Assembly (NCBI RefSeq): GCF_030013205.1
Contig: NZ_CP122648.1
Reading direction: 5' to 3' (one strand)
DNA: 64,000 bases
DNA from: Escherichia coli
GTDB lineage: Bacteria; Pseudomonadota; Gammaproteobacteria; Enterobacterales; Enterobacteriaceae
The notes under the pieces were generated by a model, which was not told the origin of the DNA, made no database searches, and worked only from the letters and a program-made list of their open reading frames with translations. The translations under genes were made by a program, and so were the position numbers. How positions within the stretch are numbered: position 1 is the first letter of the stretch; every line of letters starts with the position of its first letter. Below, in pieces: positions 8,379-33,549 of the stretch.

Positions 8379-8526
8379 ACTAAAGGGACAGCTTTCATCC
8401 GGTTGGCTCACATTGCCGGATGGTCAATGTTTACACTGACCTGCACAGGAGTGTTTCGGTTTCAGGTGAACATAAGTGCCATCCGACGTTTCAGCGTGAG
8501 TCTCCGGCAAATACAGGAGGTTTACA

Positions 8527-9531
8527 ATGAAACGCGCGTCTTTGCTTACACTCACGCTTATCGGCGCTTTTAGCGCCATCCAGGCTGCCTGGGCGGTTGA
8601 TTATCCGCTACCTCCAACCGGAAGCCGACTGGTTGGGCAAAATCAAACGTATACGGTGCAAGAAGGGGATAAAAACCTTCAGGCCATCGCCCGACGTTTT
8701 GATACTGCGGCAATGTTGATCCTTGAAGCCAATAACACTATCGCCCCGGTGCCAAAACCTGGTACGACGATAACTATTCCTTCGCAACTGTTATTACCTG
8801 ATGCGCCGCGTCAGGGGATTATCGTTAACCTGGCAGAGCTGCGCCTTTATTATTATCCGCCGGGAGAAAATATCGTGCAGGTCTATCCGATAGGTATTGG
8901 TTTGCAGGGGCTGGAAACGCCAGTGATGGAAACGCGTGTGGGGCAGAAAATCCCTAACCCAACCTGGACGCCTACGGCGGGCATTCGTCAGCGTTCGTTG
9001 GAGCGTGGCATTAAATTACCGCCAGTCGTTCCTGCCGGGCCAAATAACCCACTAGGACGTTACGCACTGCGCCTCGCGCATGGTAATGGCGAATACCTCA
9101 TTCATGGCACCAGTGCGCAGGACAGCGTCGGTTTGCGCGTCAGTTCGGGCTGTATTCGCATGAATGCGCCGGATATTAAAGCCTTATTCTCCAGCGTGCG
9201 GACGGGAACGCCGGTGAAAGTGATCAACGAACCGGTGAAATATTCCGTGGAACCGAACGGGATGCGTTATGTTGAAGTACATCGACCACTATCAGCAGAA
9301 GAACAGCAGAACGTTCAGACAATGCCATACACACTGCCAGCAGGCTTTACGCAATTTAAAGACAATAAGGGTGTAGATCAGAAATTAGTCGATAAAGCGT
9401 TGTATCGTCGGGCAGGGTATCCGGTTGCGGTGAGCAGTGGAGCAACTCCCGCAGCCAGCAATGCGCCTTCAGTAGAGTCAGCGCAGAATGGTGAACCAGA
9501 GCAAGGGAATATGTTACGCGCGACGCAGTAG
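8527..9531 (+). CDS. ldtE: L,D-transpeptidase LdtE (YnhG) with LysM and YkuD domains
   Basis: 334 aa, signal peptide, catalytic HGT...SSGCIRM motif. Confidence 0.9.
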
Positions 9532-9544
9532 CGGTAAATGGCAG

Positions 9545-9580
9545 GCAAAAAAAATGGCGCACAATGTGCGCCATTTTTCA
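9545..9580. terminator. bidirectional intrinsic terminator shared by convergent ldtE (+) and lpp (-)
   Basis: Palindrome TGGCGCACA/ATGTGCGCCA flanked by an A8 run upstream and T5 downstream. Confidence 0.8.
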
Positions 9581-9594
9581 CTTCACAGGTACTA

Positions 9595-9843
<249 letters not shown>

Positions 9844-10083: not shown

Positions 10084-10109
10084 AATAAAAAAAGCGCCCA
10101 TCAGGGCGC
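10084..10109 (-). terminator. intrinsic terminator of pykF
   Basis: Hairpin AGCGCCC-ATCA-GGGCGCT followed on the minus strand by a T8 run, about 30 bp after the pykF stop. Confidence 0.8.
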
Positions 10110-10141
10110 TTCGATATACAAATTAATTCACAAAAGCAATA

Positions 10142-33499: not shown

Positions 33500-33513
33500 T
33501 CCGTCCTGCAATA

Positions 33514-33541
33514 CTGACGGATGCGAACGGGCATCCGTCAG
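33514..33541. terminator. intrinsic terminator between convergent grxD and lhr
   Basis: CTGACGGATGC-GAACGG-GCATCCGTCAG hairpin followed by TCCTTTCTCT. Confidence 0.7.
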
Positions 33542-33549
33542 TCCTTTCT

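Follow-up and report, generated by a model that had tools for sequence, protein, structure and literature searches.

The palindrome between the convergent ldtE and lpp genes of Escherichia coli is the known lpp terminator and likely a bidirectional one

Terminators of symmetric build, placed between two convergent genes, were already known in the 1980s, and at an intrinsic terminator it is the hairpin forming over a weak rU:dA hybrid that leads to release of the transcript. Bidirectional terminators between convergent genes have been described for tonB/P14 (Postle and Good, 1985) and as a ‘hypersymmetric’ type (Wright et al., 1992). An A tract before the hairpin is an accepted hallmark of terminators working on both strands; symmetric terminators can nevertheless differ in efficiency by direction, and the effect of the A:U extension is debated. 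The lpp gene of E. coli has been treated as Rho-independently terminated, its poly(A) tails being attached beyond the terminator (Mohanty and Kushner, PMC1636475). From our analysis of a 64-kb window (the whole stretch of 64,000 nucleotides of E. coli contig NZ_CP122648.1), the palindrome between ldtE and lpp, which a first-pass annotation had presented as a bidirectional terminator shared by the two genes, is the E. coli lpp terminator itself. The same annotation had rated it as expected biology rather than novelty, and rightly so, as the element is already known and ordinary; the lpp terminator being a classic, the discovery value is small.

The order of genes around the hairpin is sufS-sufE-ldtE / lpp / pykF, with ldtE on the plus strand and lpp and pykF on the minus strand, as indicated by the ORFs and the RefSeq annotation. 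Gene names were taken from the ORFs and from the RefSeq annotation of K-12 and of E. coli genomes with the same sequence, and the names ldtE and lpp that had been read from the sequence were correct by both [Table 1]. The stop codons of the two convergent genes are separated by a gap of 63 nt. Expression of ldtE is reported to be sigma-S dependent. The 1.8-kb stretch around the hairpin is 100% identical in several swine E. coli isolates and was found in 5,425 of the 5,426 complete E. coli genomes, in which the hairpin is single-copy (median of 1 place per genome). In K-12 MG1655, the intergenic sequence shows no difference over the hairpin and the two tracts and carries two substitutions further out; coordinates were converted as K-12 position = 1767252 - window position, a conversion verified against an alignment with K-12. 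In a single E. coli genome (NZ_CP196304.1, 4815692-4815734), the intergenic query matched over its lpp-side 43 nt only, with lpp annotated and ldtE not, which points to a rearrangement or to a second lpp copy whose breakpoint lies in the hairpin region. The lpp gene closes with two in-frame stops, TAA and then TAG (9594-9592; the pair spans 9592-9597 on the minus strand), and tandem stop codons are common in very highly expressed genes.

The element occupies 9547-9578, inside the interval 9545-9580 that had been marked out for it, and the perfect palindrome with an A run on one side and a T run on the other was confirmed both in the sequence and by a repeat finder, which placed 14-nt arms of 100% complementarity at 9550-9563 and 9565-9578 (equivalent to a 13-bp stem with a 3-nt loop). 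The 29 bases of the palindrome are made up of an 8-bp G+C-rich core, the 3-nt loop, and five A:T pairs, and take in five of the eight A and all five T. On the plus strand, the sequence across the element is GGCAAAAAAAA-TGGCGCAC-AAT-GTGCGCCA-TTTTT-CACTT, which within the 63-nt gap stands as GGC-AAAAAAAA-TGGCGCAC-AAT-GTGCGCCA-TTTTT-CAC; read in the lpp sense, the T run at 9574-9578 becomes five A pairing with the first five U of the tail. The core, with six G:C pairs among its 8 bp, has a folding energy of -13.0 kcal/mol on either strand, and the 36-nt stretch as a whole folds at -18.4 kcal/mol (z -5.0) on the plus strand and at -19.5 kcal/mol (z -6.0) on the minus strand, energies matched in 0 of 200 shuffles. 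It is the longest and the sole perfect hairpin of at least 13 bp in the 64-kb window (0 in 100 composition-preserving shuffles), and a terminator-pattern scan flagged it on both strands. Further perfect palindromes in the window, at 33513-33542 (12 bp) and at 52933-52959 (11 bp, with an A8 run before it), may be further terminators. The pykF terminator at 10091-10112 on the minus strand is a 9-bp hairpin, GAAGCGCCC-TGAT-GGGCGCTTT, followed by TTTTATTT; on the plus strand, this hairpin has an A run before it and no T run after it, so that, in contrast to the lpp hairpin, its layout looks one-directional.

Table 1. Window coordinates of the ldtE-lpp intergenic element and its neighboring features.
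Feature	Position	Strand	Details and source
ldtE coding sequence (L,D-transpeptidase LdtE, 334 aa)	8527..9531	+	TAG stop 9529-9531; ORF list, RefSeq annotation
Spacer, ldtE stop to palindrome, 18 nt	9532..9549	+	
U8 tract of the lpp terminator (A8 on +; A-rich 5' flank in ldtE sense)	9547..9554	-	Sequence
Mapped lpp mRNA 3' ends	9550..9551	-	K-12 1757702, 1757701 (+); 5th, 4th U; Adams et al., 2021
Perfect palindrome, 29 bases (13-bp stem, 3-nt loop)	9550..9578	both	Sequence, repeat finder, fold, shuffles
G+C-rich core hairpin TGGCGCAC-AAT-GTGCGCCA	9555..9573	both	Arms 9555-9562, 9566-9573; loop 9563-9565
U5 tract of the predicted ldtE-direction terminator, then CACUU	9574..9578	+	Sequence, terminator-pattern scan
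Spacer, lpp side, 16 nt	9579..9594	-	
lpp coding sequence (murein lipoprotein, 78 aa)	9595..9831	-	TAA stop 9597-9595; ORF list, RefSeq annotation

In the lpp direction, the RNA reads ...UAAUAG-N16-AAAAAUGGCGCAC-AUU-GUGCGCCAUUUUUUUUGCC, with the terminator 16-21 nt past the stop codon. The 8-bp core with its six G:C pairs and 3-nt loop (-19.5 kcal/mol when extended to 13 bp) is followed by UUUUUUUU directly 3' of the stem, and on this strand the element is a textbook intrinsic terminator, a hairpin and then U8. Mapping of 3' ends had been proposed as the check on the first-pass annotation, and for lpp the published Term-seq data bear it out, as the dominant lpp ends listed in two growth-condition tabs, with scores of 175,710 and 82,465, fall inside the U tract (Adams et al., 2021; PMC7815308, Supplementary file 1). 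One of these ends, 9550, is the last base of the perfect palindrome and hence the base at which the A:U-extended helix stops. The lpp mRNA thus reaches just as far as its U tail can be paired by the five upstream A, so that a nearly blunt 13-bp helix results, and this blunt, A:U-extended helix may protect the mRNA from 3' exonucleases. The lpp mRNA is famously stable and very abundant. Further along the lpp strand, a Rho termination region is listed at K-12 ∼1757917 (Adams et al., 2021; Supplementary file 2), which corresponds to window ∼9335, antisense to ldtE, a position that is approximate because 800-nt windows underlie it; the reads upstream and downstream were 517 and 13 in untreated cells and 630 and 68 with bicyclomycin (Rho score of 4.3). 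This Rho-sensitive signal, ∼215 nt beyond the hairpin, suggests that the lpp terminator is slightly leaky and that some transcription passes into antisense ldtE, where it is curbed by Rho.

In the ldtE direction, the five upstream A are read as five U of the other strand, so that a polymerase coming from ldtE would meet the same core and then UUUUUCAC (U at 5 of 8 positions), again a stem-loop directly followed by a U tract; read further, the tail is UUUUUCACUU. The strengths of the two directions were compared by hairpin energy and a T-weighted tail score only, and by this score (5.2 for U8 on the lpp side vs. 3.9 for U5-CAC on the ldtE side) the ldtE-sense signal is the weaker one, if a plausible terminator. 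In a pattern scan of the plus strand, no terminator-like site was found in the 148-nt gap between sufE and ldtE (8379-8526), nor past the hairpin before 10674. Since the sufE-ldtE gap is without such a site, transcripts of the suf operon may continue through ldtE and likewise rely on the lpp hairpin; and since the plus strand offers no other site from sufE to 10674, the intrinsic stop of ldtE, if any, would be the lpp hairpin. These sequence patterns make bidirectional use in E. coli likely. The architecture of a bidirectional terminator, i.e., an A tract 5' and a T tract 3' of the hairpin between convergent genes, is present, and of the two directions it is that of lpp which has experimental support in vivo.

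At a probability of roughly 70%, we consider the palindrome to be the hairpin that terminates lpp transcription independently of Rho and stabilizes the 3' end of the lpp mRNA, and at which polymerases from ldtE are probably stopped as well, less efficiently. RNA polymerase arriving from lpp releases its transcript as the 8-bp G+C-rich hairpin forms on the U8 stretch, and the mature lpp 3' ends lie at the fourth and fifth U, which leaves an almost blunt 13-bp terminal helix with a putative protective role. Polymerases arriving from ldtE, perhaps including those that read through from the suf operon, would be released at the same hairpin with lower efficiency, and this use by ldtE has the look of a by-product, one well developed in Escherichia. 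The claim that the palindrome serves both convergent genes therefore holds for lpp, with its Term-seq ends at 9550 and 9551, and for ldtE it is a prediction from the sequence pattern.

A comparative analysis of 86 Enterobacterales loci bears on which of the two RNAs has shaped the element. The loci comprised 80 from a scan for Lpp (one per species, nearly all Enterobacteriaceae), with a convergent ldtE homologue downstream of lpp in 76 of them, and six further loci from Erwinia, Photorhabdus, Serratia (two), and Sodalis. Among the 80 sequences used for the stem and the tracts (79 scan loci and K-12, the truncated locus L006 being omitted), 77 share the same stem, ATGGCGCAC/GTGCGCCAT, while the loop occurs in nine variants. 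The T run on the lpp side is 7-9 long in 76 of the 80 species and that on the ldtE side is 1-6 long, counts that include the stem-closing T. In an alignment of 33 sequences read in the lpp sense, 97.4% of the cells are paired, as against 33-66% in slid controls, and three independent double-sided compensatory changes were found (G:C to C:G in Mangrovibacter, C:G to U:A in Photorhabdus, and U:A to C:G in Serratia); the values for pairing and compensation were reached in 0 of 500 shuffles. In Arsenophonus and in an unplaced relative from metagenomic data, the equivalent position holds an unrelated hairpin with a U tract. Most substitutions in the A flank change A to G, which keeps a G.U pair in the lpp-sense RNA and gives a C.A mismatch and a broken U tract in the ldtE-sense RNA; 16 cells favor the lpp sense vs. 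1 for the converse, a count that is suggestive only, as the cells are not phylogenetically independent. Likewise, a U.G wobble of the lpp sense in the stem of Candidatus Erwinia impunctatus is a C.A mismatch in the opposite sense. The hairpin is kept 17 nt behind lpp even in loci without ldtE, the convergent neighbor being sufE at a distance of 116 nt in Erwinia and of ∼480 nt in Mangrovibacter. The asymmetric conservation of the tracts, the bias in the A flank, and the retention of the hairpin without ldtE are together indicative that selection acts mainly on the lpp RNA; on this sequence comparison, it is the lpp-sense RNA that appears to be chiefly maintained. Two of the loci deserve separate mention. 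The Enterobacteriaceae gut isolate MGYG-HGUT-00110 (2001-2624 of its locus, L069) has two tandem lpp copies, with the conserved hairpin after the second copy and before the convergent ldtE; Salmonella, for its part, has lppA and lppB. Locus L006 (NZ_PVBT01000035.1, 294 bp, filed as Phyllobacterium myrsinacearum) carries an lpp that is 100% identical to that of E. coli together with the start of the hairpin, and is almost certainly E. coli contamination of the Phyllobacterium myrsinacearum assembly.

The asymmetric conservation and the hairpins kept without ldtE also speak for the strongest alternative, namely that the hairpin and its A flank serve lpp only, in termination, 3'-end protection, and the choice of RNA-binding protein, while ldtE transcripts end otherwise, e.g., by Rho acting on untranslated antisense-lpp RNA or by decay. 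That lpp has its mapped 3' end just where the A:U extension stops fits such a role. So does the observation that 5' flanks rich in A form pairs with the U tail, disfavor Hfq, and typify ProQ-bound 3' ends (Stein et al., PMC7367173), a study that covers the lpp 5' UTR and not the lpp 3' end and thus supports a general role of A-rich flanks only. As an A-rich flank also fits ProQ-type 3' ends, the A run alone is not evidence of service to ldtE, and since selection on the lpp-sense RNA includes the pairing of the A flank with the U tail, symmetry alone is no proof of two-way function. For a 3' end of ldtE, there is no minus-strand entry at K-12 17571xx-17579xx in the tables of dominant ends of Adams et al. 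(2021); these tables hold ∼900-1200 dominant ends per condition, in which a weakly expressed gene would be missed, and are too shallow for the absence to count. The TERMITe and SMRT-Cappable-seq supplements are without entries for lpp or ldtE, and a literature search on the lpp terminator, or on a bidirectional terminator with lpp, returned nothing specific. Against a purely lpp-serving hairpin stand the ldtE sense of E. coli, which fits the usual terminator pattern (an 8-bp G+C-rich stem of -13 kcal/mol, with U at 5 of the 8 positions immediately following), and the lack of any alternative terminator-like site after ldtE before 10674; we consider this alternative unlikely, if one to be taken seriously. 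As for the description of the element as a clean bidirectional example, it is plausible in E. coli, but the tails are unequal and the U run on the ldtE side is not conserved.

Another possibility is that the hairpin is more than a stop signal. In Erwinia amylovora, hrs6/rmaA has been reported as an Hfq-associated RNA of 113 nt between sufE and lpp, drawn on the sufE strand with the terminator at its 3' end and said to be conserved in all Enterobacteriaceae (Zeng and Sundin, 2014; PMC4070566), and RmaA/Hrs6 is reported to regulate motility and amylovoran (exopolysaccharide) in Erwinia. None of the Rfam families reached its gathering score on the hairpin. The best sub-threshold match was RmaA (Hrs6; RF02629), at 31.0 bits on the minus strand and 29.6 bits on the plus strand against a gathering score of 57, and only model positions 16-47 align (32 of 113), so that the hairpin falls short of membership in the family; the consensus of these positions, aaaaauGGCGCaCAAUGuGCGCCauuuuuUUU, is the lpp hairpin almost base for base (window 9547-9578). 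Weak matches to STnc320, STnc40, Ysr202, and others were dismissed, since they fall on terminator hairpins that belong to unrelated sRNA models. In Candidatus Erwinia impunctatus, the relative used for this comparison in place of Erwinia amylovora, the RmaA model aligns in the lpp sense (L082, 2748-2838) across nearly the whole lpp-sufE gap, beginning 11 nt past the lpp stop, spanning the hairpin, and ending within 16 nt of the sufE stop. The U8-GCC tail of the model matches lpp 3' ends generally, and the remainder of RmaA is Erwinia sequence between the hairpin and sufE, at which position E. coli has ldtE. The family-wide conservation reported for RmaA is probably that of the lpp terminator, in either orientation. 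It is quite doubtful that the hairpin is the conserved core of an sRNA of the RmaA/Hrs6 family from the gap next to lpp. E. coli might also release a stable short RNA here, as an lpp 3'UTR or read-through fragment or as an ldtE 3'UTR fragment ending at the hairpin; conversely, and as speculation, the Erwinia ‘sRNA’ and its deletion phenotype might be the lpp terminator and damaged lpp expression. Either way, the RmaA family of Rfam is built largely on the lpp hairpin and deserves a second look by its curators.

Collision between polymerases offers a further way to end ldtE transcription, in which heavy lpp transcription would meet the sparse polymerases from ldtE head-on, with the hairpin as a pause site and the collision as the main end of ldtE transcription. 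Such a model has been proposed for many convergent E. coli pairs (Ju et al., 2019), and lpp is so highly transcribed, judging from its Term-seq scores, that collisions are likely; the hairpin would also give an overlap of ∼30 nt between the 3' ends of both transcripts. Nevertheless, the elements of that model are described as unlike intrinsic terminators, whereas the hairpin is canonical for lpp and near-canonical for ldtE, and the pair named in that description is ynaJ-uspE, with lpp and ldtE unmentioned; we regard collision as the main end of ldtE transcription as very improbable. A chance origin of the palindrome, or a role at the level of DNA (e.g., as a protein-binding site or repeat element), can be set aside, since no shuffle gives the hairpin, compensatory changes keep the RNA pairing while the loop drifts, the palindrome occurs once per E. 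coli genome, and RNA 3' ends map to it.

In relation to the described systems, the hairpin shares with collision-type terminators (Ju et al., 2019; Wang et al., preprint) the convergent gene pair and transcripts that would overlap at the hairpin; that class is said not to resemble intrinsic terminators, which the lpp hairpin does, and it is thus placed outside the class. Unlike the tonB/P14 and hypersymmetric terminators, termination in the ldtE direction is only predicted, and the tracts are unequal (U8 vs. U5), with only the lpp side conserved. Like them, the element combines a symmetric G+C-rich hairpin with an A tract and a T tract in a short gap between convergent genes. With the lpp terminator of E. 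coli K-12 it is one and the same element, and only the strain differs, which is nothing of substance.
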